Notes: generated from the sequence alone by a model not told the origin. 64,000 bases of DNA from a virus (IMGVR_UViG_2558860984_000001:49570-113569); one strand, 5' to 3'. Positions 19,402 to 52,084 are shown, numbered from the stretch's first letter. Made by a program: numbers and translations.

Positions 19402-19509
19402 GTCGTCCTATCGCAGATCCCTCCACGGCTGTCGGGCACTCGGCCGCCTTGGAGGTGACGCCTCCGCTGCTAAGATCACCAAGAAGTCGCGCGTCAGCGC
19501 GGCGCGCGA

Positions 19510-19529
19510 CCGCTGGTGCTAGGCCGGGT
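19510..19529 (+). promoter_or_regulatory. late-gene leader motif YYGCTGG-N4-RGGCCGRRY (copy 1)
   Basis: CCGCTGGTGCTAGGCCGGGT; TAAGAT at 19471. Confidence 0.65.
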
Positions 19530-19557
19530 CCCCGCACACACCCCTGCGGGAGCACCT

Positions 19558-19806
19558 GTGCCCTCCCCGTCGCCCCTCACCCCCCACGCCCGCCCCGAAC
19601 GGGAACGCGCCCGCGCCCGCCTCGCCGGCCTCGTCCGCCACCGGCCCCCGGACGACCCGGACATCGACCGGGCGCGCCGTGACCTCGCCGCCGCCCGCGT
19701 GCAGGGCCTCCTTCAGGCGGCGCTGGCCGAACTCGCCCTCGTCACCGGCAACCCGGGCGCCAGCGACGGCGACACCGTCAAGGGGGCCGACCATGGGGCT
19801 CGTTGA
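19558..19806 (+). CDS. hypothetical phage protein
   Basis: GGGAG RBS, GTG start; RARLAGLVRHRPPDDPDIDRARRDL. Confidence 0.6.
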   Translation: MPSPSPLTPHARPERERARARLAGLVRHRPPDDPDIDRARRDLAAARVQGLLQAALAELALVTGNPGASDGDTVKGADHGAR

Positions 19807-20134
19807 GGTCCTCGTCCTCGGTCTGGCCGCGTACCGCGGAACCCAGCTCGCCGTGCACGACACCGTGCTCGACCCCGCACGGGACCGCGTGTTCGCCTGG
19901 CAGGCCCGCCGGCCGGAGTCCCGCCCACGCCAGTGGGTCATCACGCTGATCTCGTGCACGTACTGCATGGGCTGGTGGGTCGCCGGCGCCGCGCTCGGCA
20001 TCTACGTCCTGGCCGCCGACACCTGGCCCGGCGTCCCGGAGTTCGCGCTGTACTGGTTCGCCGTCGCCGGCGTACAGGCGCTCCTCAACCGCTGGGACGA
20101 CACCCGGCCCTCGTCTGCAGGGGCCGGGGAATGA
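19793..20134 (+). CDS. DUF1360 family membrane protein
   Basis: LAAYRGTQL..HD..LISCTYCMGWW with hydrophobic segments. Confidence 0.8.
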   Translation: MGLVEVLVLGLAAYRGTQLAVHDTVLDPARDRVFAWQARRPESRPRQWVITLISCTYCMGWWVAGAALGIYVLAADTWPGVPEFALYWFAVAGVQALLNRWDDTRPSSAGAGE

Positions 20135-21591
20135 AGCTCACCCGCAGCCGGTCCCTGTCTGCCGCCGCGGCACGGTTCACCACCCGCATCTTCGGCAGCG
20201 GCAGCGGCAAGTCCACGGCACCAGACCAGTCGTGGCAGAAACGCGCCTGGGACATGTACAAGACGACGCCTGAGGTCAGGTTCGTCGCGACCTGGACCGG
20301 GAACGCCATGTCCCACCTCCGGCTGACCGCTGGCCTGATCCAGCCCGACGGCAGCATCGAGGAGGCGCCCGAAGGCTCCCGCGCCGCCGAACTCGTTGCC
20401 TCGATTGCCGGAGGCCCCGAAGGCCAGTCTGAACTCATGGCCGCCTTCGGCAGGCACCTGACGGTCGCCGGAGAAGGCTGGACCGTTATCCGCCCCGCTG
20501 ACACCAGCGAGGCGGGCGCCGTGCCAGGAGGGATGCAGGGGGAAGAGTGGCACGTGCTGTCCACCTCTGAGGTGCAGCACAGACGCGGCAAACTCACAGC
20601 GGAGATCAACGGCGACGAAGTTGACATTCCCGCCGCCGACCCAGATACCCCACCCACGCCGGACACCCCACTCGCGATCCGCGTATGGACACCGTCCCCC
20701 GAGCGCCACATCGAGGCCGACTCCCCGATGCGGTCGTGCCTAGAGCTGCTGGAGGAACTGCGACTCCTCCACGCCGCAGTCAAGGCCATCATCCGCAGCA
20801 GGATCACCGGCCGCGGCGTCCTTATGATCCCCAAAGGCGCCCGATTCCCGACCACCCCCGGCCAAGGCGACGCAGAAGACAGCCTGATCGACGTGTTTAT
20901 GGAAGTCGCCGAAACCGCCATCAGAGAGCCGGAATCCGCCGCAGCGACCGTCCCGATCATCCTGGAAATGCCGCAGGACGCTATCGATGGCCTGAAGTGG
21001 CAAACATTCGAGTCCGCCTTCGACGAACTCGCCATCCGGTTGCGTGAGGAGGCCATCCGTCGCTACGCCCTCGGGCAGGACATCCCACCTGAGGTACTGC
21101 TAGGCATGGGCGCCTCCGTCAATCACTGGAACGTGTGGGCGCTGAGCGAGGAAGCCGTTCGTCTCGGAGTCCTCCCCAAAGGCAAAACCGTCGCCCACGC
21201 CTTCACCACCCAATGGCTGCGCCCCATGCTCGCCGCCGAAGGCGACCCTGAGGCACACACGTGGGTGGTGCAGGTCGACTCCAGCACTCTCCGCGTCCGC
21301 GCCAACCGCGCCCAGACCGCCCTCGACGTCTACGACCGCGGCGGCATCAGCGCCACCGCCCTCCGCCGAGAGACCGGATTCGACGAAGCCGACGCGCCCA
21401 CACCGGAAGAGTCCGCTGCCCGCCGACCCACGGCCAGCACAGCCACACCGCCGCGGCTACCCGTAGACGAGACCGGCGCCGAACCTGCCACCCAACCCGA
21501 CTCGGGTCAGCCCCCACCGGCCGAGCGCACCACCAGCACGGCCCCCACCACCCAGCCCACCGCGGAGACCAGGCCGGAGGAACCTCGATGA
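20131..21591 (+). CDS. portal protein
   Basis: WQKRAWDMY..PEV, HLTVAGE, RVWTP..ADSP, PPEVLLG..NHW motifs; position after terminase. Confidence 0.85.
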   Translation: MKLTRSRSLSAAAARFTTRIFGSGSGKSTAPDQSWQKRAWDMYKTTPEVRFVATWTGNAMSHLRLTAGLIQPDGSIEEAPEGSRAAELVASIAGGPEGQSELMAAFGRHLTVAGEGWTVIRPADTSEAGAVPGGMQGEEWHVLSTSEVQHRRGKLTAEINGDEVDIPAADPDTPPTPDTPLAIRVWTPSPERHIEADSPMRSCLELLEELRLLHAAVKAIIRSRITGRGVLMIPKGARFPTTPGQGDAEDSLIDVFMEVAETAIREPESAAATVPIILEMPQDAIDGLKWQTFESAFDELAIRLREEAIRRYALGQDIPPEVLLGMGASVNHWNVWALSEEAVRLGVLPKGKTVAHAFTTQWLRPMLAAEGDPEAHTWVVQVDSSTLRVRANRAQTALDVYDRGGISATALRRETGFDEADAPTPEESAARRPTASTATPPRLPVDETGAEPATQPDSGQPPPAERTTSTAPTTQPTAETRPEEPR

Positions 21592-21995: not shown

Positions 21996-22167
21996 CTGCC
22001 CGTACTGCTGGGGCGGCCACGGCTGCGATCTCGACGAACACCATCCCGGCGACCACGAGTGCCGCACCGGGCACGTAGAGCAGGGCGACGAACCTGACAC
22101 CCGCCCCCGCCGTCACCCCGATGTCTTCCACTGCCGCACCGACGAGCCGGAGCATGCCCATGGCTGA
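21988..22167 (+). CDS. 59-aa Cys/His-rich peptide (absent from ORF track)
   Basis: MADCPYCWGGHGCDLDEHHPGDHECRTGH...; ATGGCTGA overlaps with both neighbours. Confidence 0.6.
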   Translation: MADCPYCWGGHGCDLDEHHPGDHECRTGHVEQGDEPDTRPRRHPDVFHCRTDEPEHAHG

Positions 22168-25100
22168 CCCCCTCGCCGCTGCCGAGCAGGACATCGCCGA
22201 TGCCGTCGCCGCAGCGCTTGCCGACACCGCCGATGAATACGGCCGCGCCCTCAACGGCGCTACCGAGCTGGTCGCGGCCCGCTTCAGCGTTGGCCGTATC
22301 GCCGGCATGTGGGCGCGCCGTGTCCCGGCCCTGGTGCGCCGGCTCCTCGGCGTAGCGGAGACCGCGGCACAGCAGACCGCCACGGATGTCGACGCCGAGC
22401 TGCCCGACGGCTGGACGGACCTCCCCGCCCGGCACCAGGACGGCCGCCGGCTGCCCGACGGCATCGGCCGGTACGCCACAGCTACGGAGGCCCTGCTGAA
22501 CGCCGTCGGCGACCGCCTCGCCGACGCCGCCGTCCGCGAACTCGCCGCCGGCCTCAACCGGGACGAGTCTGTCGACCAGCTCCGCGCCCGCCTCCTGGAG
22601 GCATTCGCCCGCGACGGCGCCCAGCTCGGGCCCGGCCGCGAACAGCGGATCGCCCAGACCGAAGCCGTACGGGCGTGGAACACCGCCGTCCTGGCCGCCG
22701 CCCGCGACCTCACCACCCCGGACAGGCCCCTGGTCAAGCAGTGGCTCACGAGGAACGACAGCAGTGTGCGCAGCGCGCACCGAGCGGCGGCAGGCCAGCT
22801 CCGCCTCCTCGATGAACCGTTCAGGGTCGCCGGCACGAGCATGCAGGCCCCCGGCGACCCCAGCGCACCGCCGGCCCTCACCGTCAACTGCCGCTGCCGC
22901 CTGGCAATCGCACCAGAACCGCGTACCGCATCCTTGGAATCTCACGCGGCGCCGTCGGCAGCATGTTCAGATCCAAGGGAGAGTCGAGTGGACAAGACCG
23001 CGGCCAGCAGCGCGCACACCGGCGCGATGATCGCCCTGGCGCCGACCGTCGAGGACGCGCAACGCCTTGCCCTGGACTCACCCGGCGCCGAACCCGCCGG
23101 CGAGCTGCACCTGACCCTCTTCTACCTGGGCGAGGCATCCGACTGGGACGAGGAGCACCGCGCCGACCTCCTCCAGCGCCTCACCGACCGGGCCCAGGAC
23201 CTGCTGCCCCTCACCGGGCAGGCGTTCGGCGCGAACCAGTGGAACGCCAACGGCGACGAGCCGTGCTGGGTGTGGGCCGTCGGCGACGACCGCGACACAG
23301 ACGGCCCGGGTCTGGAGACGACCCGCGCCGCGGCCGTGAACGCGCTGGAGGACCAGCTCCGGCAGCCGCAGTTGCCGGCGCAGCACTCGCCGTGGCAGCC
23401 GCATGTCTGTGCCGCGTACTCCCGCAGTCCGGCCCTGCTCACGGCGATGAACGAACGCCTCGGCCCCGTCCGCTTCGACCGGCTGCGCGTCGCGTTCGCA
23501 GGCGAGTACACCGACATCCCGCTGGGACCGCCGACGCAGGAGGACCCCATGGACAACGACCAGCACAACCAGCCGCAGCACCTCGCGGCACGCCGATGGT
23601 CCACTCCCGGCGACGCTGGCCTGGCATTCGAGAACCAGCAGACCGGAGACGGCCGCGTGTTCCGCGCCGGTGCGCTCTACTGGGACGGGGCCGGCCCGTG
23701 GCCGCTGCAGTACGCCGAGGAGATGCTCACGGGCCACGAAGGCGCCGAGCTGGCGGGTGCTATCGAGCTGTTGGAGCGAGACGACTACCGCCTCGCCTCC
23801 AACGGCGTTCTCTACCCCGGTCGCCCCGCCGGCGCCGACGCGCTGATGCTGCTTGAAGAGGGCGCCCCGCTCGGAGTGTCCGTCGACCTGGACAACGTCA
23901 CCGTCGAGTTCGTCGACACCACCGGGCGGGCCGTAGGCGATCCCGACGACGAGGTGGTGCTGCTTGCCGCGGCGCTGCCGTCCGCGTCGTTCCTCCGCCT
24001 CGCCGATGGCTCGTGGGCGGTCACCGCCACGGCGACCGCCGGGTGGACCGCCTCCGGACAGGTCATGTCCCGCACCGCTGCCGGCGCGCAGATCATCACC
24101 GGCCCCGACGGGCGTATCCCCGCCACCGCCGTACAAGCCGCGTTCGGCCCGACCGGCACCCTCACTGCCGGCGCAGGCGCCCCAGACCCGGAGGACGGCA
24201 TCGTGCTGCACTCCGAATCGGCAGGCGACCTGCTGATGCGGGTGACCCGAGCCCGGGTCCGCGGCGCCACCCTCGTCAGCGTGCCGGCATTCGACCAGGC
24301 CCGCATCGTCCTCGACCCCCAGCCAGGCACCGAGCCGGTCGCTGACCCGCAGGGGAACGACCAGGGCCGGGACGACGAGGAGATGACCGCCGCAGCCGCG
24401 GGCACCCTCCTGCGTCGCGTCGTCGACTACGTCACCACCGCGCCGCATCCCGTCGGCGCCCGCGACACCGGCCAAGCGCTGGACATCACGATGACCTCTG
24501 CCCGCGGCGCGCTGAACCGTGCCGCCGCGAAGGAGCTGATCGTCCGTCTGGCCCGCGGCCTGTACGTCGGCAACCCCAGCCTCGGCGAGGACAAGACCCG
24601 CACCGCCGCCCCAGTGACAGCCCCGTTGACGGCTGCGGTGTCCGGTGACCTCGACCTGCCGGTTCTCCCCGAACGCGACGCCGAGTGGGACGGCGACAAG
24701 GCCGCTTCCCGGATCCTCGCGTGGGCCACCGACGAAGACGGCAACGTCGACGCCGACAAGCTCTCCCAAGGGTTCCTCTACCGCGACGACACCGCGAACC
24801 CCGCGACCGTGAGCGCGTACAAGCTGCCGTTCGCTGACGCCATCACACGCGGCGACACCCAGCACCTGGAGATCATCGACACCGCCGTCTACACCATCGC
24901 CAACGTCCTCCAAGGCGGCATGGGCGGCGTCGATCTGCCCGACGATGACCGGGAGGCCATCCGAGGCCGCGTCGAGGAACTGTACGCCCGTCTCGCAGGC
25001 GAGTTCGACGACGACTCGATCGCTCCGCCCTGGGCCGACGACAAGAACACCAGCGACGACCAGCCGGACGACAGCGGGGAGGAACAGGCGTCAGCAGCTC

Positions 25101-25936
25101 TGGTCGCCTCCGCTTGGACCGCCATGCGCGAAGCCCCACCCATGCCCGCCGAATGGTTCCGCGAGCCAACCGCGGCCGAGCTTCCGCCTGGCTCCGGTGG
25201 TGTCCACGTCGACGGCGGACGCATCTACGGCTGGGTTGCCCAGGTCGGAGAACCCCACGCCGGAATGCCCGGCCGCAACCTCACCATCGAATCGCTCGGC
25301 GACATCGACCTCAGCCACTTCAACCGGGCCCACTTCAAGCTCGATGACGGCTCAGTGGTCCGGGCCGGCGCCATGACGATGAATGCCGGCCATCACAACG
25401 ACGGCGCCACGTGCGAAACCTCCGCCTGTCAATTCGACGACACGCGAACGGTCGCAGGAATCGTGCGAGTCGGCCAGAACGACCGCGGCCTGTGGTTCAG
25501 CGGTGCAGCAGCTCCGTGGCTGGACACCTGGGACGACCTGACTTTCCGGGCATGCCAGCCCAGCTACCACATGATCCAGGGCCGTGACGGACGCTGGCAG
25601 CTCCGCGCAGTCCTCTCCGTACCCGTCCCCGGCCACTCCAGCCCGCTGCTGGCCGCGTTCGCCGAGCGCTCCAACCTCGCCCTCACCGCAGCCAGCACCG
25701 CGCCCACACCGGATGACTCACCGATCAGCACCGCGCAGCGGCGGCAGATCGGCGAGATCACCGCCACTCTGGCGACGATCAACGACCAGATCAGCGGGCT
25801 CCGCGACCAGATCGCCGCCCTCAACCAGCCTCCGGCACCGGCCCCCACCGGCGACCCGGTCCAAGACGAGATCAATGCCCTGGCCGCGCGAGTCGAACTC
25901 GCAGCCTCTGCCGCACCGACACGAGAAAGGCCCTGA
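22160..25936 (+). CDS. MuF-like minor head protein fused to 2H phosphoesterase (Acb1-like), prohead protease-like and scaffold-like domains
   Basis: RIAQTE..KQWLT..VRSAH..PGDP..VNCRC (MuF); HLTL and PHVC (2H); TGDGR..GH..GVSVDLD..GATLVSVPAF (protease-like). Confidence 0.85.
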   Translation: MADPLAAAEQDIADAVAAALADTADEYGRALNGATELVAARFSVGRIAGMWARRVPALVRRLLGVAETAAQQTATDVDAELPDGWTDLPARHQDGRRLPDGIGRYATATEALLNAVGDRLADAAVRELAAGLNRDESVDQLRARLLEAFARDGAQLGPGREQRIAQTEAVRAWNTAVLAAARDLTTPDRPLVKQWLTRNDSSVRSAHRAAAGQLRLLDEPFRVAGTSMQAPGDPSAPPALTVNCRCRLAIAPEPRTASLESHAAPSAACSDPRESRVDKTAASSAHTGAMIALAPTVEDAQRLALDSPGAEPAGELHLTLFYLGEASDWDEEHRADLLQRLTDRAQDLLPLTGQAFGANQWNANGDEPCWVWAVGDDRDTDGPGLETTRAAAVNALEDQLRQPQLPAQHSPWQPHVCAAYSRSPALLTAMNERLGPVRFDRLRVAFAGEYTDIPLGPPTQEDPMDNDQHNQPQHLAARRWSTPGDAGLAFENQQTGDGRVFRAGALYWDGAGPWPLQYAEEMLTGHEGAELAGAIELLERDDYRLASNGVLYPGRPAGADALMLLEEGAPLGVSVDLDNVTVEFVDTTGRAVGDPDDEVVLLAAALPSASFLRLADGSWAVTATATAGWTASGQVMSRTAAGAQIITGPDGRIPATAVQAAFGPTGTLTAGAGAPDPEDGIVLHSESAGDLLMRVTRARVRGATLVSVPAFDQARIVLDPQPGTEPVADPQGNDQGRDDEEMTAAAAGTLLRRVVDYVTTAPHPVGARDTGQALDITMTSARGALNRAAAKELIVRLARGLYVGNPSLGEDKTRTAAPVTAPLTAAVSGDLDLPVLPERDAEWDGDKAASRILAWATDEDGNVDADKLSQGFLYRDDTANPATVSAYKLPFADAITRGDTQHLEIIDTAVYTIANVLQGGMGGVDLPDDDREAIRGRVEELYARLAGEFDDDSIAPPWADDKNTSDDQPDDSGEEQASAALVASAWTAMREAPPMPAEWFREPTAAELPPGSGGVHVDGGRIYGWVAQVGEPHAGMPGRNLTIESLGDIDLSHFNRAHFKLDDGSVVRAGAMTMNAGHHNDGATCETSACQFDDTRTVAGIVRVGQNDRGLWFSGAAAPWLDTWDDLTFRACQPSYHMIQGRDGRWQLRAVLSVPVPGHSSPLLAAFAERSNLALTAASTAPTPDDSPISTAQRRQIGEITATLATINDQISGLRDQIAALNQPPAPAPTGDPVQDEINALAARVELAASAAPTRERP

Positions 25937-25938
25937 CC

Positions 25939-26193
25939 ATGGCCTGTGCCTGCAACAAGAACAACCCCAGGTGGGAAGTCGTCACGAGCAGCGGCGCCAC
26001 CGAGCGGATCGTCTACAGCGCCAGCACTGAGTCGAGGGCCCGCTCGATCGCCAAGCGCTACCCCGGCAGCACCGTGCGGAGGAACCCGCCCGCCGCGCAG
26101 CCGGCTGGGCAGACCACCCAGCCGGCCGCCCGCACGGCGGCCGGCCGCACTCCTCCGCGGGCCGCGAAAGTCAGCCCCACGACCCACGGCTGA
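25939..26193 (+). CDS. small Cys-motif phage protein (MACAC-)
   Basis: AAAGG RBS; located between protease and capsid genes. Confidence 0.7.
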   Translation: MACACNKNNPRWEVVTSSGATERIVYSASTESRARSIAKRYPGSTVRRNPPAAQPAGQTTQPAARTAAGRTPPRAAKVSPTTHG

Positions 26194-26279
26194 CCCCTGG
26201 ACACCCCCGGGTAGCGGCAGCGTGCGCCACCTCAGCTCGCTCCCGCCCGGGGACTAAGATCGAACTCCCAACTGAATAA

Positions 26280-26299
26280 CCGCTGGTTCTGGGCCGGGT
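26280..26299 (+). promoter_or_regulatory. late-gene leader motif (copy 2, before capsid gene)
   Basis: CCGCTGGTTCTGGGCCGGGT; TAAGAT at 26255. Confidence 0.7.
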
Positions 26300-26331: not shown

Positions 26332-28044
26332 ATGACGTTCGAAGTCCCCGAGGACATCACCCAGCTCAACGACGACGAACTCGCCCAGGCCCTCGACGGC
26401 GCCCGCGAAGCGTTCCACGCGATGTCGACGGCCCAGGCCGTCACCGCGGACGACCTGACGCAGATGCGTGAACTGGCTACCGTCGTGGAGTCCATCCGCG
26501 GCGAGCAGACCGCCCGCCTGGAGGCCGCGCAGCAAGCCGCCGCCGAGATCGACGCCCTGGCCGCGCAGGTCCGCGGCACCGACCCGGATCCCGACACCGA
26601 CGCGGCCGACGGCGACGCGGACGAGACCGACAGCACCGCAGAGGCCACCGCCTCCGCCGACACCGAGCCCGAGACCGCCCCCGAGCCGGAGACCGCCACC
26701 GCCACCGCCTCCGCCGGCGTCGTCAACCCCAACGGCGGCGGCACCCTCATGCCCCGGCGCCGCGCCCTGGACCTCTCCGCCGTCCGCCGCGCCCAGCCCC
26801 GCGTCCTGCCCCCGGACCCCAACCCGCGCCCGGAGATCACCGCCAGCGTGGACGTGCCCGGCTACCAGCCCGGCCAGCCGCTGGACATGGAAGGCGTGAC
26901 CGAGGGCATCATCCGCCGCGCGAACGCCCTCAAGACCGCCGGCGGGGGCGTGGGCCTGACCGCGAGCTACCGCCTGCCGTTCGACAAGAGCCTGATCGTC
27001 AACGACAGCTCGTCGGGTACCGAGGGAACCCGGTCCGTCATCCTCGCCGCTGACCAGTCCCGCCTGAACGGCGGCAACATCGTCGCGTCCGGCGGCTGGT
27101 GCGCGCCCAGTGAAACGGTCTACGACCTCGCGTCCATCGCCTGCCCCGAAATGCTGTGGGACGCCCCGGAAATCATGCTCGCCCGCGGCGGCCTGCGGTT
27201 CTTCCCCATCCCGTCGCTCGACGTCGCGTCCATGACGTGGGTCCACACCGAGGCCGACGACATCGCCGGCTCCGAAAAGCCCTGCTTCCGCATCCCGTGC
27301 CCGGAACCCGTCGAGGTCAGGTGCGACGCGATCGGCGTCTGCCTGGAGTCGGGGATCTTGACCCAGAGGCATTTTCCCGAACTCGTCGCCTGGTACCAGA
27401 GCAACATCATGGTCGCCCACGAACTCAGGATCAGGCAGCACCTGTTCGAGCAGGCGATCACCCAGGCCACCCCCGTCACCCTCCCGGAGACCTTCGGCGC
27501 CCTGTCGGCCGTCTACCACGCCATCGCCATGCAGGCCGCCGACATGGTCGAGCGCCACGCCCTGTGCGACAGCATCAACATCGAGGTCGTCCTGCCCTGG
27601 TGGAGCCGCTCGCTGATGCTTGCCGACCTCGCCCGCCAGAACGGCCGCGCCCTCGAAGAGGTGTCCGTCGAGCAGCTCGTGGCTCTCTTCGCGTCGCTCG
27701 GCGTCGGCATCCAGTGGGCCCGCGGCCTCGGCCCCGCCGTCCCGACCGATATCGGCGGCCAGACCCCCATCACCTCCTGGCCCGCGCAGATCCAGATGCT
27801 CATGTACGTCGCCGGGTCCCTGCAGATCGGTCGCGGCGGCGAGATCAGCCTCGGCGTCGTACACGACTCGACGAAATTCTCGACGAACGATTACACCGCC
27901 CTCTTCTCAGAGGAGTGCGTCGCGCTGATCAACAGGGGCCCGGACCTGCGCCTGATCACCTTGCCCGTCTGCCCGAGCGGCGAGACCGGCGCCCAGACCC
28001 TCATGCTCTGCGACGCCTCTCCGGGCGAGCAGTCCCCGTCTTGA
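26332..28044 (+). CDS. major capsid protein with N-terminal scaffold region
   Basis: Coiled-coil and acidic N-terminus, ASGGWCAPSETVYD, RGGL.F, GVVHDS..TNDY..FSEE; position. Confidence 0.9.
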   Translation: MTFEVPEDITQLNDDELAQALDGAREAFHAMSTAQAVTADDLTQMRELATVVESIRGEQTARLEAAQQAAAEIDALAAQVRGTDPDPDTDAADGDADETDSTAEATASADTEPETAPEPETATATASAGVVNPNGGGTLMPRRRALDLSAVRRAQPRVLPPDPNPRPEITASVDVPGYQPGQPLDMEGVTEGIIRRANALKTAGGGVGLTASYRLPFDKSLIVNDSSSGTEGTRSVILAADQSRLNGGNIVASGGWCAPSETVYDLASIACPEMLWDAPEIMLARGGLRFFPIPSLDVASMTWVHTEADDIAGSEKPCFRIPCPEPVEVRCDAIGVCLESGILTQRHFPELVAWYQSNIMVAHELRIRQHLFEQAITQATPVTLPETFGALSAVYHAIAMQAADMVERHALCDSINIEVVLPWWSRSLMLADLARQNGRALEEVSVEQLVALFASLGVGIQWARGLGPAVPTDIGGQTPITSWPAQIQMLMYVAGSLQIGRGGEISLGVVHDSTKFSTNDYTALFSEECVALINRGPDLRLITLPVCPSGETGAQTLMLCDASPGEQSPS

Positions 28045-29568: not shown

Positions 29569-30516
29569 GTGCCGATCGAGCCTCTACCCTGCGGCCCGGA
29601 GGGTCCCCCTCCGGGCCCCGGTGAGCCGTCGTGCTGCTCGCCGTCGATCAGCGCCGTGCCGCTGTGCAGGACGGACGGCAGCATGGTGCTGCTGGTGCTG
29701 CGCTCGATATGTGGGTGCGAAGGCGGGCCGGAGCCGGAGCCGGAGGCGGTTGGCTGGATCGACCCGGCCACCGGCGTGTTCACGCCCGGCCTGGCCCCGG
29801 ACGGCGCCGGGCCCTGCAGCCCCGGACCGGGGCCGAGCCCGGAGTCGTGCGCCACGGTCGCCGTCCTGCGCCTGTGCGACCACACCACCGACCCCGACAC
29901 CGGGGAGACGGCGTGCACGGAGTTCCTCCGGTTTCTCCCGGTGGACTGCGAGGGCACCCCGGGCACGCCGGTCGACCGCGACCGTGACGGCGTCACGCCG
30001 TATCTCCCCGACGGCGAGGTCGTCGACTGCTCAGACTGCGCATGCACGAGCAACACGAAGACGCTCGTGCTATGCGACTGGCAGCTCGACGGTACGAAGA
30101 TGCCGTTCGTACGCACCCTCACGTACGACTGCGATACCGGCGAGGTGCTGCAGCAGGCCGACTCCACCCCGAGCGGGGAGCCGTACACGCCGGTCGGGGA
30201 GGTAGACGACTGCGATGCCTGCCATCCGCTCCCGATGTGCCCGCAGCTGGTCGGAATCTCCGGCCCTGACACCTGGACGATGCCCACCCGGACGGAGTCC
30301 GTCACGGTCACCGTGGTGTGTGGTCCCGTCGACATCACGGACTGCGCCGGCGCTACGACGACCGTGAACGAGTGCGGGACGGGCTTCACATGGTCGGCAC
30401 CGCCCGGCGACTGCATCCCGGGGCGTCTCTGCGGCCCCTTCACTGTCGACGTTCCTTACGGATCGGCCGCCTACATCCAGCTCCTCGGCCCCTGCGATCT
30501 GGGAGACGTGTCGTGA
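29569..30516 (+). CDS. Cys-rich repeat structural protein
   Basis: LCD..F(L/V)R..DC..D..G.PY.P.GEV.DC repeats shared with the 1524-aa protein. Confidence 0.75.
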   Translation: MPIEPLPCGPEGPPPGPGEPSCCSPSISAVPLCRTDGSMVLLVLRSICGCEGGPEPEPEAVGWIDPATGVFTPGLAPDGAGPCSPGPGPSPESCATVAVLRLCDHTTDPDTGETACTEFLRFLPVDCEGTPGTPVDRDRDGVTPYLPDGEVVDCSDCACTSNTKTLVLCDWQLDGTKMPFVRTLTYDCDTGEVLQQADSTPSGEPYTPVGEVDDCDACHPLPMCPQLVGISGPDTWTMPTRTESVTVTVVCGPVDITDCAGATTTVNECGTGFTWSAPPGDCIPGRLCGPFTVDVPYGSAAYIQLLGPCDLGDVS

Positions 30517-41707: not shown

Positions 41708-41869
41708 TCGGGAAATCTCGGCTCGCTCCCCGGACTTCGGGTAGCGTGCTGGTATCCGCCTTGGGCGATGCCCGGCGGTTCTCTACGCTGATGGCCGCGG
41801 GCCTGGCGATGAGACTTCTTGGTCGCGTGTGCCGACCGACGCGAAGCTAGCCAGAGAGGTCCGTCCCCC

Positions 41870-42430
41870 ATGCGTAAGATCCCGACGCTGTTCGTCCGTG
41901 ACCCCGATGACCTTCGCCGTGTGCTGCCGGAGGCCACGCCAGGGTGCGAATGGGTCCTCGCTGGCGAGGGCGTCCCAACCCGCAAGTACGACGGGACGTG
42001 CGTGATGCTCGACGCCTCGGGAGAGTGGTGGGCGCGCCGCGAGGTCAAGCCCGGGAAGGCCGCGCCGGACCGCTTCGTCCAGGTCGACCACGATCCGGTC
42101 ACGGGTAAGTCGGTGGGCTGGGAGCCGATCAGCCAGTCGGCCTTCGCGAAGTTCCACGCCGAGGCGGTCGCCGACGTTTCGGCTGTGTTCGAGCCCGGCA
42201 CCTACGAGCTGATTGGCCCGAAGATCAACGGGAATCCGGAGGGTGAAGGGCACCACCGGCTCCGGCCGCATGCGTCCGCGCAGCGCCTGGAGGTCGCGGA
42301 GCGTTCCTTCGACGGCATCCGGGAGGCCGTGCTGACGCTGCGGGCGGTCGACGGTGCGGAGGGTGTGGTGTTCCACCACCCTGACGGGCGCATGGCGAAG
42401 ATCAAGGCGCGCGACTTCCGCGTGCTCTGA
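41870..42430 (+). CDS. RNA ligase-like nucleotidyltransferase (DUF5565/RLIG1-like)
   Basis: MRKIPTLF, TRKYDGT (motif I), TYELIGPKINGN, EGVVFH..MAKIK. Confidence 0.8.
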   Translation: MRKIPTLFVRDPDDLRRVLPEATPGCEWVLAGEGVPTRKYDGTCVMLDASGEWWARREVKPGKAAPDRFVQVDHDPVTGKSVGWEPISQSAFAKFHAEAVADVSAVFEPGTYELIGPKINGNPEGEGHHRLRPHASAQRLEVAERSFDGIREAVLTLRAVDGAEGVVFHHPDGRMAKIKARDFRVL

Positions 42431-42467
42431 CTCCCGACCCTCCGGGTCAGGCAACAGAGGTCCTTCG

Positions 42468-42487
42468 CTGCTGGTCACGGGCCGGGC
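42468..42487 (+). promoter_or_regulatory. late-gene leader motif (copy 6)
   Basis: CTGCTGGTCACGGGCCGGGC. Confidence 0.5.
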
Positions 42488-42976: not shown

Positions 42977-43183
42977 GCCAATGAAGTTGGTGCGCCAGCT
43001 GCTGCCGCCGGATCGCCTGTTCCCTGCGGCCGGGCCGGAGGCTGCAGCCTTGGCGCTGCGGATGCTCGGTGCGCGGCCGGGTAGCGGCGTGGAGGAGACG
43101 GTCACCGCCCTGTTCGACGGCAGCTGACCGCAGCCGGTGCGCCGTACGGCCGCGCTGAGAGCTGGCTACTCTGGTTGGTGACG

Positions 43184-43203
43184 TTGCTGGTGCTAGGCCG
43201 GAC
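43184..43203 (+). promoter_or_regulatory. late-gene leader motif (copy 7)
   Basis: TTGCTGGTGCTAGGCCGGAC; TACTCT at 43167. Confidence 0.65.
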
Positions 43204-43229: not shown

Positions 43230-43661
43230 ATGCGTCGTTCCTTCGCCCTCGCCACCGAGCCGCACACCGCCGACATCGGCGGCACCGAACTGGAGTTCCA
43301 GCCTGAGATCCCCGCAGACGAGTTCCTCGACGCCTACGAACGGGTTCGGGAAGCATCGCAGGCGGCGACAACGCCGGAGTCGGTGACGACCGATCAACTC
43401 CGCGACGCCAACCGCGCGGTCCGCGAGTTCCTGGGCGACCTGATGCTGCCGGAGTCGGCCCAGGTCTTCGCGGAGATGCGGCTGCCCTCGCGCGTCTACG
43501 CCGAGCTGCTGGAGTGGGTCCTGGAGCTGTACGGCGGCGGGGCGTCGGGGGAGCGCCCTACTGGGTCGTCCAGCGCCTCTGCGCCGCCGTCGCGGAGGGC
43601 TGGGACGAGTGGGAGGGGAGCCTCGCCCTCGAAGGGGTCACCCCGCGGGCGTGGTCGCTGA
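43230..43661 (+). CDS. tail assembly chaperone (gpG-like)
   Basis: AGGAG RBS; before tape measure; ends ..YGG..RPT.. Confidence 0.8.
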   Translation: MRRSFALATEPHTADIGGTELEFQPEIPADEFLDAYERVREASQAATTPESVTTDQLRDANRAVREFLGDLMLPESAQVFAEMRLPSRVYAELLEWVLELYGGGASGERPTGSSSASAPPSRRAGTSGRGASPSKGSPRGRGR

Positions 43662-43894
43662 GGACGCTGCTGTCCGCGGCTGAGCAGGCGATGATGCGGG
43701 CTGCGACGGACGACGCCGACCGTGAGCGGCAGCGCACCCGGTTGTACGCGCCGCCGCACGGCGCCGAACTCCGCGGCCGGCGTGGTGCCCGCCGCGGGGC
43801 CGGAGGGATCCCGGGTGGGGTGAGTCACGGCCAGGCGCAGGCGCTCATCGCGCAGCTGGCGGCCGAGGACACCCGGTACGGCGGCGGTGTGTAG
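43556..43894 (+). CDS. tail assembly chaperone -1 frameshift extension (gpGT-like)
   Basis: -1 frame ORF PYWVVQRL..LYAPP overlapping gpG, with no RBS of its own. Confidence 0.65.
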   Translation, partial: PYWVVQRLCAAVAEGWDEWEGSLALEGVTPRAWSLRTLLSAAEQAMMRAATDDADRERQRTRLYAPPHGAELRGRRGARRGAGGIPGGVSHGQAQALIAQLAAEDTRYGGGV

Positions 43895-43946
43895 AGCTGC
43901 TCGGGATGGGTGTGTGCGCCGGATACCCTGAGTACGACGTACGACG

Positions 43947-43966
43947 CTGCTGGCGGTAGGCCGGGC
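43947..43966 (+). promoter_or_regulatory. late-gene leader motif (copy 8, before tape measure)
   Basis: CTGCTGGCGGTAGGCCGGGC; TACCCT at 43924. Confidence 0.7.
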
Positions 43967-43995: not shown

Positions 43996-46900
43996 GTGGC
44001 AGATGGCGAGCTGGCAGGCGCCGCCCACATCCGCATCGAGCTGGATGACAGCGGCCTGGACACTGCCGGTCGGCGTGCCGGTGAGCGGGCCGGGCGCGAC
44101 TTCGAGCAGGCGCTCAACCGGGCGGGCCAGCGCAGTGCACGCAGGATGCGGCGCATCCTGCAGAACGCGGCACGTGACCTGACGGTCCGGGTGCGGGTCG
44201 AGCCGGACCTGAGCCGCCTGGGCAGTGTCACCGTCCCGGTCGAGCCGGACGTCAGCCTGTTCATGGCGCGGCTGCGTTCGGCGCTGGCTGATGAGGAGGT
44301 TGCGATCCGGGTCGTCCCAGACCTGGATCGTTTTGACTCCGCCCTGCTGTCCGGGCTGTCGAGCCTGACCAGCATCAACATTCCTGTCGAGCCGGACACA
44401 ACGTTCTTCGTGGCGCGGTTGCAGGACGCGCTCGTCGGCGAGCAGGTCGCTATCGAGGTCATCCCGGACCTTTCCGGCTTCGATGCGCGGCTGCGCACGG
44501 TGTTGGCGAGTATGCCCGCGGTCGAGATTCCGGTCCGGCCGAACGCAGCGCTCTTCCGCCAGTGGCTGGCGAACGATCTGCGTGGTCTGGCGGCGGTTGA
44601 GGTTCCGGTCAGCCCAGATATGACCGGGCTCGATGCGCAGGTTCGTGCTCACCGGGCGCCAGCTATCGGGGTATCGGTGGATGCGGATCCGGCCGGGCTG
44701 GACCGGATGTCGGCGTCGTTGGAGAGGCTGGGATCGGTCCTCGGGATCACTGCCCGCGTCACGGCCCTGACGCTGGCCCTTGGGCTCCTCGGTGGCGCCG
44801 CCGCAGCGTCGGCCGCGTCGCTCATCGGCGTCGGTGCCGCGCTCGCTCCTGCCGCCGGGATCCTGGCTGCGTTCCCGGCGGCGGTTCTTGGTGCCTCGGC
44901 CGCGCTCGGCGCGCTGCGCCTGGCGACGTTGGGTGTCAGCGAGGCGTTCGAGGCCGCGCTCACCGGCGACGCCGAGGAATTCGAGGAGGCCCTGGAGGGT
45001 CTGAGCCCAGCGGCGCGGGCGGCGGCCCGGGAAGTGCGGGCGCTCACGCCGGAGTTCCAGCGGCTCCGGTCAGCGGTTCAGGACGCGTTCTTCTCGCGCA
45101 TCGAGGGCGACATCACCCGTGTCGCCGAAGCCCTGGGCGGACCGCTGCGCCGCGGACTGCGGGAGATCGCAGCGGATTGGGGGGTTGCCGCATCGGCCGC
45201 GGCCGGCTTCCTGGCTTCGACGCAGGGCGTCACCCGTATCTCGCAGGTCCTCGCGGGCACCCAGCGGGTCACCGGCGCCCTCGCGGGCGAGGTCCGCGGG
45301 CTGGTCGCCGGGTTCCTCAACCTCGCCGGCGCCATCAGCCGGGCGTTCGGTGCCCGAGCGGCGACCGCGCTCGGCGATCTCGCAGGAGGGCTCGGCGACT
45401 TCCTCAACCGCATCGCCAACTCCGGGCAGGCGGTCGCATGGGTCGACGACGCCGTCTTCACTTTCCGGCAGCTCGGCGCTGTCATCTCGAACGTCGCCAG
45501 CATCATCGGGTCCGTCTTCCAGGCGGCCAACGCCGCTGGCGGTGATGTTCTCGGCGTCCTGGGGAGCCTGACCGGCGAGGCTGCGCGGTTCCTGAACACC
45601 GCGGAGGGCTCTGGCGCCCTCGTCGGCGTCTTCGAGACCCTCGCCGCGGTCGGAGCCGCGCTGGGGCCGATCCTGACGGAGCTGGTCACGCAGATCGGAG
45701 CCCTCGCACCAGCGTTCGTACCGATCATCCAGGCCCTCGGCCCGGCGCTCACCCGGGTCCTGGCCGCCCTGGGCCCCGCCCTACAGGCGGTCATGCCCGG
45801 CCTCCAGGCCATCGCCGCCGGGCTCGCCGACGGGCTGGGCGCCCTCGGCCCGGCGCTGCAGCCCCTCGGCGCGGCCCTCGGCCAGGCGCTCGCTGCACTG
45901 GCGCCGCTGCTGCCCCTGCTGGGGGAGTTCGCCGCGTTCGTCGGGACCGCCCTGACCGGCTCGCTGGGGGTCCTGACCGCTGCGCTCTCCCCGGTCATCG
46001 ACGCGCTCGCCAGCTCGTTCGCCCCGGTGATCCGGCAGCTCGTGCCGATCCTTCGGCAGATGACAGCTGCTGCCATGCCGCTGGCCGCAGCGTTCGGGCA
46101 GAGTCTCGCGTTGGCCCTACAGCAGCTCCTGCCCCCGGTACTGGAGCTGATCCCGCAGCTGCTCACGGGGCTGCTACCTGCGTTCCAGCAGCTCGTCGCG
46201 GCGATCGTGCCGCTTCTCCCGCTGCTCGCCGAGCTGGTGGTGGTTGCCCTGCAGCCGGTGATCGCGGTGCTGCCGCAGGCGATCACCCTGTTCGTCGCGC
46301 TGGTCAACGGGCTCACCCCGCTGCTGCACCTGCTGAACCAGATCCTGCCGCCGGCGCTCCGCTTCTACACCGCGGTGTTGGGATGGGTGAACATGCAGGT
46401 CGTCGTCCCGGCGCTGAGGTTGATTGTCGGGGCACTCGGGCTCCTGGCTCGTGCCGTGACCGCGGTAGTGGGCGCCGTGGCGAGCTTCGTCTCCCGCGTG
46501 ATCAGCTTCTTCCAGACCCTCTACAACACCCTCGTCGGCAACAGCATCATCCCGGACCTGGTCAACGGGATTCTCCGATGGTTCGGCATGCTGGGGCGGA
46601 TCCCGGGGATCGTCGCGCGGGTGGTCGCGCAGGTGCTCGGAGCGTTCGCGCGGATGGCCGCCAGCGCCATCGCCGCCGCCGGCCGGCTCGTCAGCCGCGT
46701 CGCGGACACGATCGGGCGGCTCCCCGCAGAGGCAGCCTCGGCGATCAGCAGTCTGGGGTCCCGCGTCGCGGACGAGATCAGCGGTGCCGCGAGGGCTGCC
46801 ATCGGCGCGGCGAAGGGTCTGATCAGCGACATCGCATCCCAGTTCAGCGGCCTGGCCTCGGCGATCGTGAGCAACATCGGTGATGTAGGCGGCGCGATCA

Positions 46901-47247
46901 TGGGCGCCATCCGCGGCTCGGTGCCGTCCGGGGTCCGGGATCTCCTCCCCGACATCGGGATCCCACTGTTCGCGAACGGCGGGATCGTCAACCGGCCCAC
47001 CCTCGGTGTCCTCGGAGAAGCCGGGCGCGAGGTTGTCCTGCCTCTTACCCGCCATGCCAGGGCCCGCCAGCTCGCCGAGCAGTCCGGCCTGACGGACATC
47101 CTGGGCACCGGAAGCGGCGACGGCGACGGCGACGGCGACGGGCCGCACACCGTCCACCACCACACCTGGAACCTCCAAGAGGTCGGCGACGCCGAGGTGA
47201 CCGCGCGCAGGGTGATGCACCGCATGGCGATGGCAGCAGGAGTGTGA
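43996..47247 (+). CDS. tape measure protein
   Basis: 1083 aa Ala/Leu/Gly-rich helical repeats, LVGNSIIPDLV, C-terminal FANGGIV..GEAGREVVLPL. Confidence 0.93.
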   Translation: MADGELAGAAHIRIELDDSGLDTAGRRAGERAGRDFEQALNRAGQRSARRMRRILQNAARDLTVRVRVEPDLSRLGSVTVPVEPDVSLFMARLRSALADEEVAIRVVPDLDRFDSALLSGLSSLTSINIPVEPDTTFFVARLQDALVGEQVAIEVIPDLSGFDARLRTVLASMPAVEIPVRPNAALFRQWLANDLRGLAAVEVPVSPDMTGLDAQVRAHRAPAIGVSVDADPAGLDRMSASLERLGSVLGITARVTALTLALGLLGGAAAASAASLIGVGAALAPAAGILAAFPAAVLGASAALGALRLATLGVSEAFEAALTGDAEEFEEALEGLSPAARAAAREVRALTPEFQRLRSAVQDAFFSRIEGDITRVAEALGGPLRRGLREIAADWGVAASAAAGFLASTQGVTRISQVLAGTQRVTGALAGEVRGLVAGFLNLAGAISRAFGARAATALGDLAGGLGDFLNRIANSGQAVAWVDDAVFTFRQLGAVISNVASIIGSVFQAANAAGGDVLGVLGSLTGEAARFLNTAEGSGALVGVFETLAAVGAALGPILTELVTQIGALAPAFVPIIQALGPALTRVLAALGPALQAVMPGLQAIAAGLADGLGALGPALQPLGAALGQALAALAPLLPLLGEFAAFVGTALTGSLGVLTAALSPVIDALASSFAPVIRQLVPILRQMTAAAMPLAAAFGQSLALALQQLLPPVLELIPQLLTGLLPAFQQLVAAIVPLLPLLAELVVVALQPVIAVLPQAITLFVALVNGLTPLLHLLNQILPPALRFYTAVLGWVNMQVVVPALRLIVGALGLLARAVTAVVGAVASFVSRVISFFQTLYNTLVGNSIIPDLVNGILRWFGMLGRIPGIVARVVAQVLGAFARMAASAIAAAGRLVSRVADTIGRLPAEAASAISSLGSRVADEISGAARAAIGAAKGLISDIASQFSGLASAIVSNIGDVGGAIMGAIRGSVPSGVRDLLPDIGIPLFANGGIVNRPTLGVLGEAGREVVLPLTRHARARQLAEQSGLTDILGTGSGDGDGDGDGPHTVHHHTWNLQEVGDAEVTARRVMHRMAMAAGV

Positions 47248-48720: not shown

Positions 48721-48721
48721 G

Positions 48722-50362: not shown

Positions 50363-51250
50363 ATGGCCGACTACGAAGGAGTCGACATGACCCACGGTAC
50401 GTGCGAGAGCGATGGCTGCTCCAAACCCGTCGCCGCCCGAGGACTGTGCAAGACCTGCCACACCCGCCTACGCCGGGCAGAGAAGAGGCAGCAGGCCCCC
50501 GCGCCAGAACCTCGGGCCTGCGAAGTCTGCGGCGCCGACATCACAGAGCGCCGCAGCCACGCCCGGGTGTGCTCCAGCTCAAGGTGCCGAAACGCGGCGC
50601 GCCGCAAGCTGCCGCGGATGTGGACCCAGGTCGAGCCGCAGCAGTGCACAGTGGTCGAGAATGGCGAGCGGTGCCCTGAGCAGGCCACGCATCGGCTGAG
50701 AACCGATCGCTGGTGCAGGAAGCACTGCGCCCGTTACGAACGTCAAGGCGATCCGGCCATCCTCACGGTAGTGCGGCGCCCGGCCGGCGAGGTCCAGGAG
50801 TATCTGCGCCAGTCCGCTCAGTCGGACACCAGCGAGTGCATCCTGTTGCCCAGCCCGACCAAGGGACGGCTGACGGTCAGCTACCAGGGCAAGCCCATGA
50901 CCGCAGCCCGCGCAGTGTGGATCATCGCACGCGACGATCCCGGGCCGGATGTGCACGTGCTGCACACCTGCCACCGTGGTGACGACGGCTGTGTCAACAT
51001 CCGGCACCTGTACCTCGGGGACCACGAGCAGAACATGGTCGACATGATCGAGTCCGACCGCGCTATGCACGGCGAGCGGCACGTTCGGCACAAATTGACC
51101 GAGATCCAGGTGCGCGAGATTGTCCGCCGTGCGCGGGCAGGGGAGAATCAGCGCAGGATCGCCGAGATGTTCGCCATCACGCCGTCGCACGTCTCCAACC
51201 TCAAGCGCGGCAGGTCGTGGTGGCGCATCACTAGACTCGGCGAGCCGTAG
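50363..51250 (+). CDS. HNH homing endonuclease with N-terminal Zn fingers and C-terminal HTH
   Basis: VLHTCH..CVNIRHL.LGDHEQN..D, KLTE..VREI..QRRIAEMF. Confidence 0.88.
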   Translation: MADYEGVDMTHGTCESDGCSKPVAARGLCKTCHTRLRRAEKRQQAPAPEPRACEVCGADITERRSHARVCSSSRCRNAARRKLPRMWTQVEPQQCTVVENGERCPEQATHRLRTDRWCRKHCARYERQGDPAILTVVRRPAGEVQEYLRQSAQSDTSECILLPSPTKGRLTVSYQGKPMTAARAVWIIARDDPGPDVHVLHTCHRGDDGCVNIRHLYLGDHEQNMVDMIESDRAMHGERHVRHKLTEIQVREIVRRARAGENQRRIAEMFAITPSHVSNLKRGRSWWRITRLGEP

Positions 51251-51270
51251 CTGCTGGTTTGGGGCCGAGC
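51251..51270 (+). promoter_or_regulatory. late-gene leader motif (copy 9)
   Basis: CTGCTGGTTTGGGGCCGAGC; TAGACT at 51232. Confidence 0.6.
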
Positions 51271-51293
51271 ACTGTGACTGTGTGAGGTGCGCC

Positions 51294-52013
51294 TTGGCCG
51301 CAGTATGTGCATGCTCAACCTATTTCAACGTCGACCCGGATACAGGCGAGTTGTGCCTGAATGCGGGCACGATGGGGCTGCGGGAGGTCCTGTATTTCGG
51401 AGTCGGCACTCACCAGTTCCGGAAGGCGGATTACCCGTGGCTGGCGCGGGTCAGGGTGCGTGTGCAGGCCGGGGGTGGCGGGGCGGCCGGAGCGAATGCG
51501 GCGTCCGGGGAGTGCATCGTGCGCCCGGGGGCGGCTGGCGGGGGCTATTCGGAGAGTCTCCTTGAGGTGAGCGCGCTGGGAGACGTCGAGTCGGTGGTGG
51601 TCGGCGAAGGGGGCGCCCCGGGAAACGGCAACGAGGACGGCGGCACGGGCGGCGGATCGAGTTTCGGCGGGTTGGTCACCGCAACCGGCGGCGCGGGCAG
51701 CACGGCCTCGCAGACCTCCGGCACGAATTTGACCTGTACGTCTGGGACGGTCGCTCCGCTCGCGGGGACCGGCGATTTCCGCATTGGTGGCGGGGCTGGC
51801 GGCAGCGCTATCCGTTTGACGGGTGCGCAGGGTGTGTCCGGGCAGGGGGGCGAATCGCATCTGGGTCACGGTGGGTGGCCGCGGTCCAGTGAGGGCCAGG
51901 GGGGTGCCAGCAGAGGTTTCGGCGGAGGTGGAGGCGGAGGGCTGTCCCATGGGGAATCGGTGTCTGGTGGGTCCGGTGGCAGTGGCCGGGTGATCGTGGA
52001 GCTGTACGGCTGA
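51294..52013 (+). CDS. glycine-rich tail fibre-like protein
   Basis: GAGGTG RBS, TTG start; ADYPWLARVRVRVQAGGGG..G.VIVELY. Confidence 0.75.
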   Translation: MAAVCACSTYFNVDPDTGELCLNAGTMGLREVLYFGVGTHQFRKADYPWLARVRVRVQAGGGGAAGANAASGECIVRPGAAGGGYSESLLEVSALGDVESVVVGEGGAPGNGNEDGGTGGGSSFGGLVTATGGAGSTASQTSGTNLTCTSGTVAPLAGTGDFRIGGGAGGSAIRLTGAQGVSGQGGESHLGHGGWPRSSEGQGGASRGFGGGGGGGLSHGESVSGGSGGSGRVIVELYG

Positions 52014-52064
52014 CCACGGGGCGGTGTGCTGGTGGGTGGTTAGGCTGGTGCTCGTGGTGTGGTG

Positions 52065-52084
52065 CCGCTGGTGGTAGGCCGGGC
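52065..52084 (+). promoter_or_regulatory. late-gene leader motif (copy 10)
   Basis: CCGCTGGTGGTAGGCCGGGC; TAGGCT at 52041. Confidence 0.7.

Follow-up and report, generated by a model that had tools for sequence, protein, structure and literature searches.

The final 64 kb of the phage genome IMGVR_UViG_2558860984_000001 (positions 49570–113569 of 113,569 bp, 70.7% G+C), hereafter the window and numbered from its own first letter, was analysed with regard to a 20-bp motif repeated on one strand of the late gene region. The element is tied to a -10-like hexamer and to a start codon, and it is restricted to late structural genes. Its transcript is predicted to be a small bulged hairpin, widespread and apparently undescribed, that would serve as an operator in phage leader RNA. 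The reading preferred here, held with about equal parts of belief and doubt, is that this leader hairpin and a partner that binds it act after transcription initiation to boost the expression of late structural genes.

About ten copies of the motif, all on the + strand, had been proposed in a previous sequence-only reading, which described them by the pattern YYGCTGGNNNNRGGCCGRRY (positions within the motif are numbered here from -1 to 20). All ten sites were matched exactly by this pattern, and they are its only exact matches in the window, none being on the minus strand; shuffled sequences gave a mean of 0.01 matches, and 0 of 100 shuffles reached ten. A further, degenerate copy placed at 41788 has two mismatches. 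The strict pattern recovered no additional site on either strand of the 113,569-bp genome. The ten copies scored 22.8–29.7 with a weight matrix (runner-up site 13.7) and 26.6–40.3 bits with a covariance model (runner-up 18.6 bits), and none of the three genome-wide scans added a comparable site, in accordance with the remark that the motif was not seen in the early or right-hand regions. All copies are located within window positions 19509–52084, with none in the remaining 80 kb of the genome. Their description as intergenic is essentially correct, with the exceptions that the copy at 19510 overlaps the final bases of a doubtful open reading frame (ORF; 19163–19522) and that the copy at 51251 begins immediately 3' of the stop codon of an HNH endonuclease gene.

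Pooling of all sources yielded at least 249 pattern matches, at least 241 of them non-redundant among the matches listed, and the 139 of these 241 in which a TAnnnT hexamer ends 5–16 nt upstream of the motif were aligned. Pair -1:20 was G-C in 116 rows, A-U in 14, G-U in 7 and another combination in 2; pair 1:19 was C-G in 137 rows, U-A in one and U-G in one; pair 2:18 was C-G in 102 rows, U-G in 25 and U-A in 12, and was never unpaired. When pair 2:18 was evaluated on the 112 sites in which both positions had been free in the search, C was never opposite A (Fisher p = 1.6e-6). Pair 4:17 changes from C-G to A-U in four leaders, namely the window copy at 41788, the capsid leader of locus L142 and the tail-tube leaders of L349 and L404; scans for the single change (A4/G17 or C4/T17) gave no leader-like site among the 120 matches listed for each. 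Because four pairs covary by Watson–Crick and wobble rules, the motif was considered to fold as RNA on the sense strand.

The sense RNA is predicted to be a hairpin of 8 bp, with a lower stem of pairs -1:20, 1:19 and 2:18, a bulged G3, the pair C4-G17, a bulged U5 and the pairs G6-C16 and G7-C15. The upper stem would usually consist of U8·G14 and U9·G13, closing a small variable loop, and both bulges, G3 and U5, are invariant. This upper stem agrees with the U-to-C changes seen on one side only, at positions 8 and 9, which face the invariant G14 and G13. Under the 8-pair model, 99.1% of 1112 cells were standard pairs and 27 carried double changes; none of 500 column shuffles equalled this result, and controls in which the pairing was slid did not exceed 61%.

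The strand on which the pairing acts is relevant for a different explanation, in which the motif would be a duplex DNA operator, a 20-bp site past the late promoter where a phage repressor or early protein blocks initiation or elongation in a stoperator-like manner. The site is indeed asymmetric, oriented with transcription and located in the narrow spaces between genes, at a position (about +1 to +25) that would suit a roadblock, and both this phage and the related Streptomyces phage TurkishDelight are temperate phages that encode an integrase together with a repressor/Cro pair. However, it is only on one strand that the covariation obeys wobble rules: the tolerated single changes (U2 with G18, G-1 with U20) are wobble pairs on the sense strand and A-C mismatches on the antisense strand, the combination C-A is absent from 2:18, non-pairs at -1:20 are limited to 2 of 139 sites, and the commonest sequence folds with -5.2 kcal/mol as sense and -2.4 kcal/mol as antisense RNA. 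Moreover, the sites are limited to the late structural region instead of being distributed genome-wide, the element is retained in predicted virulent phages of the genus Woodruffvirus, and copies without a promoter also adjoin start codons. A DNA operator is accordingly regarded as very improbable.

Stoperators of cluster A mycobacteriophages and R4-like Streptomyces phages are reportedly 13–14-bp duplex sites, distributed genome-wide and linked to lysogeny, and the start-associated sequences of cluster K are said to lie 3–8 bp from the start codon and to include the ribosome-binding site. The present element resembles both in being a short asymmetric intergenic repeat of actinophages oriented with transcription, but it differs in being a folded 21-mer, 21–33 nt from the start codon, found only in late structural units and also in predicted virulent relatives. 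Pairing is constrained on a single strand, and the sites are not spread over early and late regions as those of a stoperator would be.

Upstream of the motif, seven -10-like hexamers had been noted, and all seven were located, with gaps to the motif of 10–33 nt. The hexamer TAnnnT is so rare on the + strand of the 64-kb window, with just 40 occurrences, that its presence within 33 nt upstream of seven of ten copies is not attributable to chance. TAnnnT is absent within 60 nt upstream of the copies at 31567 and 42468, and the copy at 37837 is the second of a tandem pair, downstream of TAGACT at 37785. The absence of an obvious -35 was likewise corroborated: sigma-70 scans returned 1 and 0 sites, at the level of shuffles, and nothing informative was found upstream of -17 in the 139 sites.

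Among these 139 sites, the hexamer and the motif are separated by 7 nt in 22, 8 nt in 18, 9 nt in 19, 10 nt in 35 and 11 nt in 21 (115 of 139 in total), while distances outside 7–14 nt account for 1–3 sites each. When the sites were aligned on the hexamer, G-14 was present in 90, C-13 in 81 and C-8 in 109, T-12, A-11 and T-7 being those that define the alignment; the commonest hexamers were TAGACT (30 sites) and TACCCT (24), and the base preceding the motif was G in 127 and A in 12. The alignment thus has TAnnnT at a set place, as expected of promoters of the sigma-70 type (host principal sigma), whether a -35 is present or not. The resulting upstream signal, G-C-TAnnCT, would be the signature of an actinobacterial -10-only promoter, and promoter activity is predicted for it. 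Assuming a transcript start about 7 nt downstream of the hexamer, the element would lie 0–4 nt from the 5' end of the transcript in most relatives, and in this phage the hairpin would begin about 3–26 nt from the predicted start. On the other side of the motif, 115 of the 139 sites allowed a start codon and its ribosome-binding site to be assigned, and the distance from the end of the motif to the start was 21–33 nt in 108 of these 115 (median 27). The unit layout over the 139 non-redundant sites is therefore G-C-TAnnCT without a -35, 7–11 nt, motif, 21–33 nt and start codon.

This spacing is informative as to what kind of element the motif is. The sequence-only reading had offered two possibilities, a 5'-untranslated RNA element and a downstream DNA activator box; the former is favoured by the one-strand covariation and by the orientation with the gene, and the latter is disfavoured by the variable -10 spacing. 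An activator box is unlikely because the spacing is spread evenly over 7–11 nt, which corresponds to roughly half a turn of the helix, with values of up to 33 nt in this phage, because a site at about +1 to +25 falls under RNA polymerase, and because a reader of duplex DNA would not impose covariation by wobble rules.

In the window, all units are located on the + strand. The first comprises TAAGAT at 19471–19476 and, after 33 nt, hairpin copy 1 (19509–19529, 31.5 bits), followed by a long leader of about 150 nt, the DUF1360 gene (19679) and the portal gene (19933–21591). Near the region, the only intrinsic terminator of canonical form (19071–19085, a stem with TTTTTT behind it) is located after the large terminase gene and before this unit. 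The second unit has TAAGAT at 26255–26260, a gap of 19 nt and copy 2 (26279–26299, 34.1 bits), with the ATG of the major capsid gene (26332–28044) 32 nt downstream. Copy 3 (31566–31586, 33.4 bits), one of those without a -10, is situated 35 nt past the stop of the gene at 30318–31532 and 43 nt before the gene for a 1524-aa protein (31630–36204). TAGACT at 37785–37790 precedes by 10 nt the tandem pair ahead of the major tail gene, formed by copy 4 (37800–37820, 27.5 bits) and copy 5 (37836–37856, 40.3 bits), the latter 26 nt from the ATG at 37883 of that gene, which ends at 38584.

The variant copy with the compensated pair A4-U17 (41787–41807), which has no nearby -10, lies about 62 nt before an RNA-ligase-like gene (ORF 41819–42430, likely ATG at about 41870), and copy 6 (42467–42487, 27.9 bits), also without a -10, follows the stop of that gene and precedes by about 52 nt a small ORF (ATG at about 42540, to 42908). 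TACTCT at 43167–43172 is 11 nt from copy 7 (43183–43203, 26.6 bits), a U1-A19 variant placed 26 nt before the tail assembly chaperone gene (43230–43661), and TACCCT at 43924–43929 is 17 nt from copy 8 (43946–43966, 32.7 bits), about 29 nt before the tape measure gene (43996–47247). TAGACT at 51232–51237 is 13 nt from copy 9 (51250–51270, 30.7 bits), which precedes a glycine-rich minor tail gene (start at about 51295, end at 52013); the HNH endonuclease gene (50363–51250) is inserted between tail-fibre genes, and its 3' end holds this TAGACT of the next late unit. Finally, TAGGCT at 52041–52046 is 18 nt from copy 10 (52064–52084, 33.7 bits), located 20 nt before the gene for a 283-aa minor tail protein (52105–52956).

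The phage carries a tyrosine integrase at the left end of its genome, a repressor/Cro-like pair, and genes for terminase, portal, a MuF-protease fusion, capsid, tail and lysis, a content by which it is predicted to be a large siphophage of Streptomyces type with a temperate lifestyle. Its major capsid protein shares 65% identity with the TurkishDelight protein and about 56% with those of the cluster BG (Woodruffvirus) phages. Geonosis, a member of Woodruffvirus, is predicted to be virulent (PMC11536984).

The genomes of TurkishDelight, YDN12 and Mischief19 were scanned with the weight matrix built from the ten copies. TurkishDelight has seven strong and two weaker copies, every one on the coding strand, located at the genes for the major capsid protein, the major tail protein (two copies), the chaperone, the tape measure protein (two copies, which are the weaker ones and have one extra bulge base) and three minor tail or tailspike proteins. 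In YDN12 the element is present only before the capsid and major tail genes, and in Mischief19 at the same two genes, the second copy being weak. Additionally, the capsid leaders of 11 uncultured viral contigs, whose capsid proteins are 65–78% identical to that of the window, were studied. Nine gave matrix hits and one more was recovered by the covariance model (one-base loop insertion); in the eleventh, a version was seen by eye only, with GACU/AGUC in place of the lower stem GCC/GGC. One of these capsid relatives, the IMG/VR contig L141, has CCAGG instead of TTNTG in the upper stem and loop of all four of its copies, a concerted change within the genome that could reflect co-evolution with a phage-encoded reader, and one of its copies is on the minus strand, ahead of a minus-strand gene. 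The orientation of the element always matches that of the following gene.

Pattern scans of IMG/VR and of a set with one genome per prokaryote species showed further copies in prophages of at least seven actinomycete genera among the matches listed, recorded as Streptomyces, Kitasatospora, Embleya, Nonomuraea, Planomonospora, Sphaerisporangium and Planotetraspora; the matches listed in unrelated phyla are evidently coding and lack the upstream hexamer. In five host genomes of 7.2–10.4 Mb, in which 150 candidates per genome were scored with the covariance model, 18 hits had E ≤ 0.01 and formed one strand-uniform cluster in each genome (5, 5, 5, 2 and 1 hits). As all 18 fall in single clusters, the element belongs to phages rather than to a host regulon.

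The comparison also bears on whether the block has any function of its own. It might be merely part of a copied promoter cassette, either the initial sequence for promoter escape or a small mobile unit, with its pairing due to shared descent; the relatedness of the sites is clear, the patterns by which many of them were gathered had a fixed core, and the hairpin is thermodynamically weak. Nevertheless, 13 of 20 positions are invariant in the 139 sites while the flanks are unrelated between copies and between phages (at about 50–65% capsid identity), identical compensatory changes turn up again next to different genes, some copies have no promoter at all, and neither terminal repeats nor target duplications were seen. 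This explanation is considered highly improbable.

According to the preferred reading, the motif would be the DNA copy of a small RNA hairpin that opens the 5' leaders of late structural transcription units, in the order host-type -10-only promoter, hairpin, 21–33 nt with the ribosome-binding site, and start codon. The invariant bulges and adjacent pairs would form the recognition site of one trans-acting partner, which may be a phage protein or a conserved host machine. Acting through this partner once initiation has taken place, the hairpin would increase the output of the cistron that follows, either because the 5' end is protected against 5'-end-dependent decay, because ribosomes load more readily, or for both reasons, and the promoter-plus-hairpin unit would be a portable booster for abundant virion proteins that defines a late structural regulon. 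Such a booster is favoured because the hairpin is at the predicted 5' terminus in most relatives, because the narrow distance to the start codon is kept even at copies without a promoter, because the smaller, predicted virulent Woodruffvirus phages retain the hairpin solely before the genes of the two most abundant virion proteins, and because neither leader terminators nor an antiterminator gene turned up.

Several observations weigh against this reading. Both the promoter and the RNA are themselves deduced from sequence. The isolated hairpin, at -5.2 to -5.3 kcal/mol, is not better than composition-matched shuffles (-5.6 ± 2.4), and its minimum-energy fold pairs C4 with G18, a register that differs from the covarying one. 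The shuffle tests overstate significance because the sites share descent and were mostly collected with patterns fixing the core. With window gaps of 10–33 nt and three copies without a promoter, 5'-terminal placement is not obligatory in this phage, and a plain stabiliser needs no 13 invariant positions. The paired fraction of the ribosome-binding site over 111 leaders was 0.69, compared with 0.60 in shuffles. Finally, the search of the phage's own ORFs against TurkishDelight, YDN12 and Mischief19 with tblastn identified no partner for the hairpin. With respect to the fold, marginal stability together with a covarying register that is not the minimum is typical of RNA shaped by a bound partner.

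Other structure in the leaders was scarce. Minimum-energy folding of the leaders revealed no common structure, and in the downstream leader the degree of structure did not exceed that of shuffles (mean z -0.18). The ribosome-binding site is clearly sequestered in the capsid and tail-tube leaders; as sequestration is only slightly above shuffles overall, an opening of the Com type is probably not general. In phage Mu, likewise, a small hairpin upstream of a late start is read by a zinc-finger protein, Com, which activates translation of mom, and a zinc-finger gene is also present in the late region concerned here, but this finger is of the C2H2 type on a head-module protein and is not Com-like, and the targets are many instead of one. 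Pairing of the motif 3' arm CCGGGC with GCCCGG beside the start codon, seen in the tail-tube and tape-measure leaders, was rejected as a general feature: GCCCG is present in 33 and GGCCC in 32 of the 139 downstream stretches, about the rate estimated from base composition. Pairing with 16S rRNA was also rejected, the best antisense match (13 nt, rich in G-U, at an internal site) being judged due to chance.

Known 5'-terminal stabilisers, such as those of Escherichia coli ompA and of Bacillus leaders, need structure and not sequence. The present hairpin would similarly lie near a predicted 5' end, the 7–11 nt gaps of 115 of 139 sites implying 0–4 unpaired bases, but it differs in that 13 positions, including the two bulged bases, are invariant across several host genera, and in that some copies are internal. 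In mechanism, and only by analogy, it may be compared with HIV-1 TAR and Tat, since it would be a bulged hairpin at the 5' end of a class of transcripts in which an invariant bulge would be the recognition point. Unlike TAR, it belongs to a bacterial virus transcribed by the host bacterial polymerase and has 21 nt instead of 59, and there is no sign of promoter-proximal pausing or of an arginine-rich activator, although the family of the head-module protein described below has an arginine-rich tail in 4 of 14 members.

The main rival to the booster is antitermination, that is, a control of elongation in which the nascent hairpin, alone or bound by a protein, modifies the polymerase and enables it to pass the GC-rich hairpins that separate the late genes. 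In favour of this, the element lies close to the promoter in a fixed orientation and is conserved in sequence, and its invariant bulged bases resemble those of hairpins bound by proteins or polymerase; tandem copies precede tail-tube and tape-measure genes; the late region exceeds 30 kb; and the absence of the element from host genes fits an RNA directed at polymerase or at a phage factor. GC-rich hairpins without T tracts are found directly 5' of several -10 hexamers, in a form that is inconsistent among sites. On the other hand, a consensus scan for intrinsic terminators in the late region gave 6 against 4.2 and 3 against 4.0 expected, with no enrichment and none inside leaders, and Pfam and PHROGs gave no N, Q, NusG/KOW, sigma or polymerase-like protein. 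Placement at operon starts would be expected of such an element, yet in YDN12 and Mischief19 it is found only at the capsid and tail-tube genes, and a tight distance of 21–33 nt to the start codon is unnecessary for antitermination. On this balance, antitermination is thought possible but unlikely.

Among known antitermination systems, lambda nut consists of boxA and boxB and works with the N protein. The hairpin resembles nut as a short, orientation-specific and repeated leader element past phage promoters that would be read by sequence and shape, but it has two bulges and a variable loop instead of a GNRA-like pentaloop, occurs in about ten copies in late structural units, each near a start codon, and is accompanied by no N-like protein that could be found. 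The four covarying pairs agree with a nascent-leader hairpin of nut type, but of another shape. A boxA-like nature was rejected, as the rrn leader of one Streptomyces genome has no similar sequence: in the 1.5 kb upstream of a Streptomyces 16S gene, the best matrix score was -13.3, compared with a maximum of 34.2. The put sites of HK022 are cis-acting leader RNAs just past phage promoters for which no phage protein is needed, and for that reason a put-like action of the present element would account for the missing common regulator. However, put is larger, with two adjacent stem-loops of about 65–70 nt, and occurs twice per genome in early operons, while the present element is a single stem-loop of 21 nt, with up to about ten late copies.

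The consensus of the ops element read by RfaH is GGCGGTAGnnTG, and like ops the present motif is a leader element on the side of the non-template strand and transcript, with GGCGGTAG in the copies at 37801 and 43947. Nevertheless, GGCGGTAG occurs in only 2 of the 11 window copies and lies in the part of the hairpin that varies, its upper stem and loop, a transcription bubble cannot accommodate the formation of a 21-nt hairpin, and no KOW or NGN domain was found in the Pfam and PHROGs scans. Ops/RfaH, sigma-54, AdpA, DasR and mimicry of an anticodon or T-arm were considered and were dropped after comparison by eye with the motif copies.

No described system corresponds to this late regulon, as the sequence-only reading had suggested, as far as Rfam and the searched literature reach. 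The cmscan comparison of window 19000–53000 with Rfam, at an E-value threshold of 1, gave 0 matches, and searches of paper texts gave no description of the element and none of the motif 14-mers. The genome announcement of cluster BG mentions no repeats (PMC5511901). Canonical -35/-10 promoters are described for phiSASD1 (PMC13722658), and the 17-bp palindromic DNA repeat of cluster O phages (PMC4351075) is a different thing.

With respect to the partner that the booster would require, the non-structural proteins common to all four phages were only a WhiB-like protein and two small membrane-type proteins, as determined by tblastn of the phage's own ORFs. To the left of the window, two WhiB domains (Pfam Whib) are located in one long reading frame at genome positions 11976–13016. 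N-, Q- and NusG/KOW-like proteins gave no hit among the 44 window and 57 left-arm proteins compared with Pfam and the 19 compared with PHROGs, in which short arginine-rich proteins might escape detection.

A candidate hairpin binder is the head-module protein P0001 (28969–29565, + strand), with a conserved, small alpha/beta N domain and a C-terminal C2H2 zinc finger. In its structural model, the N domain spans about 65 residues and is confidently predicted (pLDDT about 95), and it is followed by an acidic and proline-rich linker that is disordered and by the finger; the fold search gave weak Cas2/RRM-like rows at E of about 1 together with C2H2 zinc-finger rows. The family is encoded about 1 kb past the capsid gene in 14 of 14 capsid-related loci checked (L134–L144, L001, L003 and L004), with a C2H2 finger at the C-terminus in 10 and the arginine-rich tail in the other 4, and it was detected in 3 of 5 motif-bearing host genomes. 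This co-occurrence with the motif is confounded because the family is syntenic with the capsid gene. The P0001 family as hairpin binder is thus a candidate and a lead, not a finding, and a protein-free action on polymerase or ribosome would equally account for the absence of a common regulator. A broader proposal is that the hairpin may be the operator of an unrecognised late-gene control, in which the P0001-type protein reads the bulges on the nascent 5' end of all structural mRNAs and couples the state of capsid assembly to the elongation or translation of virion genes, in a feedback similar to those of TAR or boxB, or in which the RNA acts without protein on the actinobacterial polymerase or ribosome; we regard this as rather doubtful.

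The hairpin offers a testable handle on the little-understood way in which actinobacteriophages switch on and balance their late genes, as cultured isolates and hosts exist. In cultured Streptomyces phages (TurkishDelight and cluster BG/Woodruffvirus) and in prophages, the genes marked by the unit are those for capsid, tail tube, chaperone, tape measure and tail fibres. The hairpin is a candidate for a new family of cis-regulatory RNA in Rfam, is useful as a marker in the annotation of high-GC phage genomes, both for late transcription units and for true start codons, and may provide a strong portable expression part for Streptomyces engineering.

Other features of the genome are as follows. 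Several late proteins have a cysteine motif right after the initiator: MACAC (25939–26193), MAAVCAC and MARCGCG (at about 51295 and 52105), with the forms MANCCG, MASVCVC and MSSCGCS in relatives. The small MACAC protein is encoded directly upstream of the capsid promoter in all four cultured phages. Domains of RNA-repair type comprise a 2'-5' RNA ligase-like domain within the 1271-aa MuF-protease fusion (22121–25936), the RLIG1-like RNA ligase among the tail genes (41819–42430) and, in the left arm (genome 10507–11037), the HAD domain of 'Swiss Army Knife' RNA repair proteins. The chaperone ORFs 43230–43661 and 43514–43894 overlap, both with homologues in relatives, which is the usual layout of a programmed frameshift. 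At 5913–16721, the window has a DNA-modification block with ParB-like, several methyltransferase, C5 methylase, PAPS-reductase/DndC-like, and DAM-like and GNAT-like (Mom-type) genes, which points to a genome that is probably heavily modified. A tRNA-Gly (anticodon TCC) was detected by ARAGORN at 13543–13614, inside the ORF called at 13474–15765; since the first Pfam domain of this ORF begins at residue 58, the DAM-like/GNAT-like gene probably starts past the tRNA.

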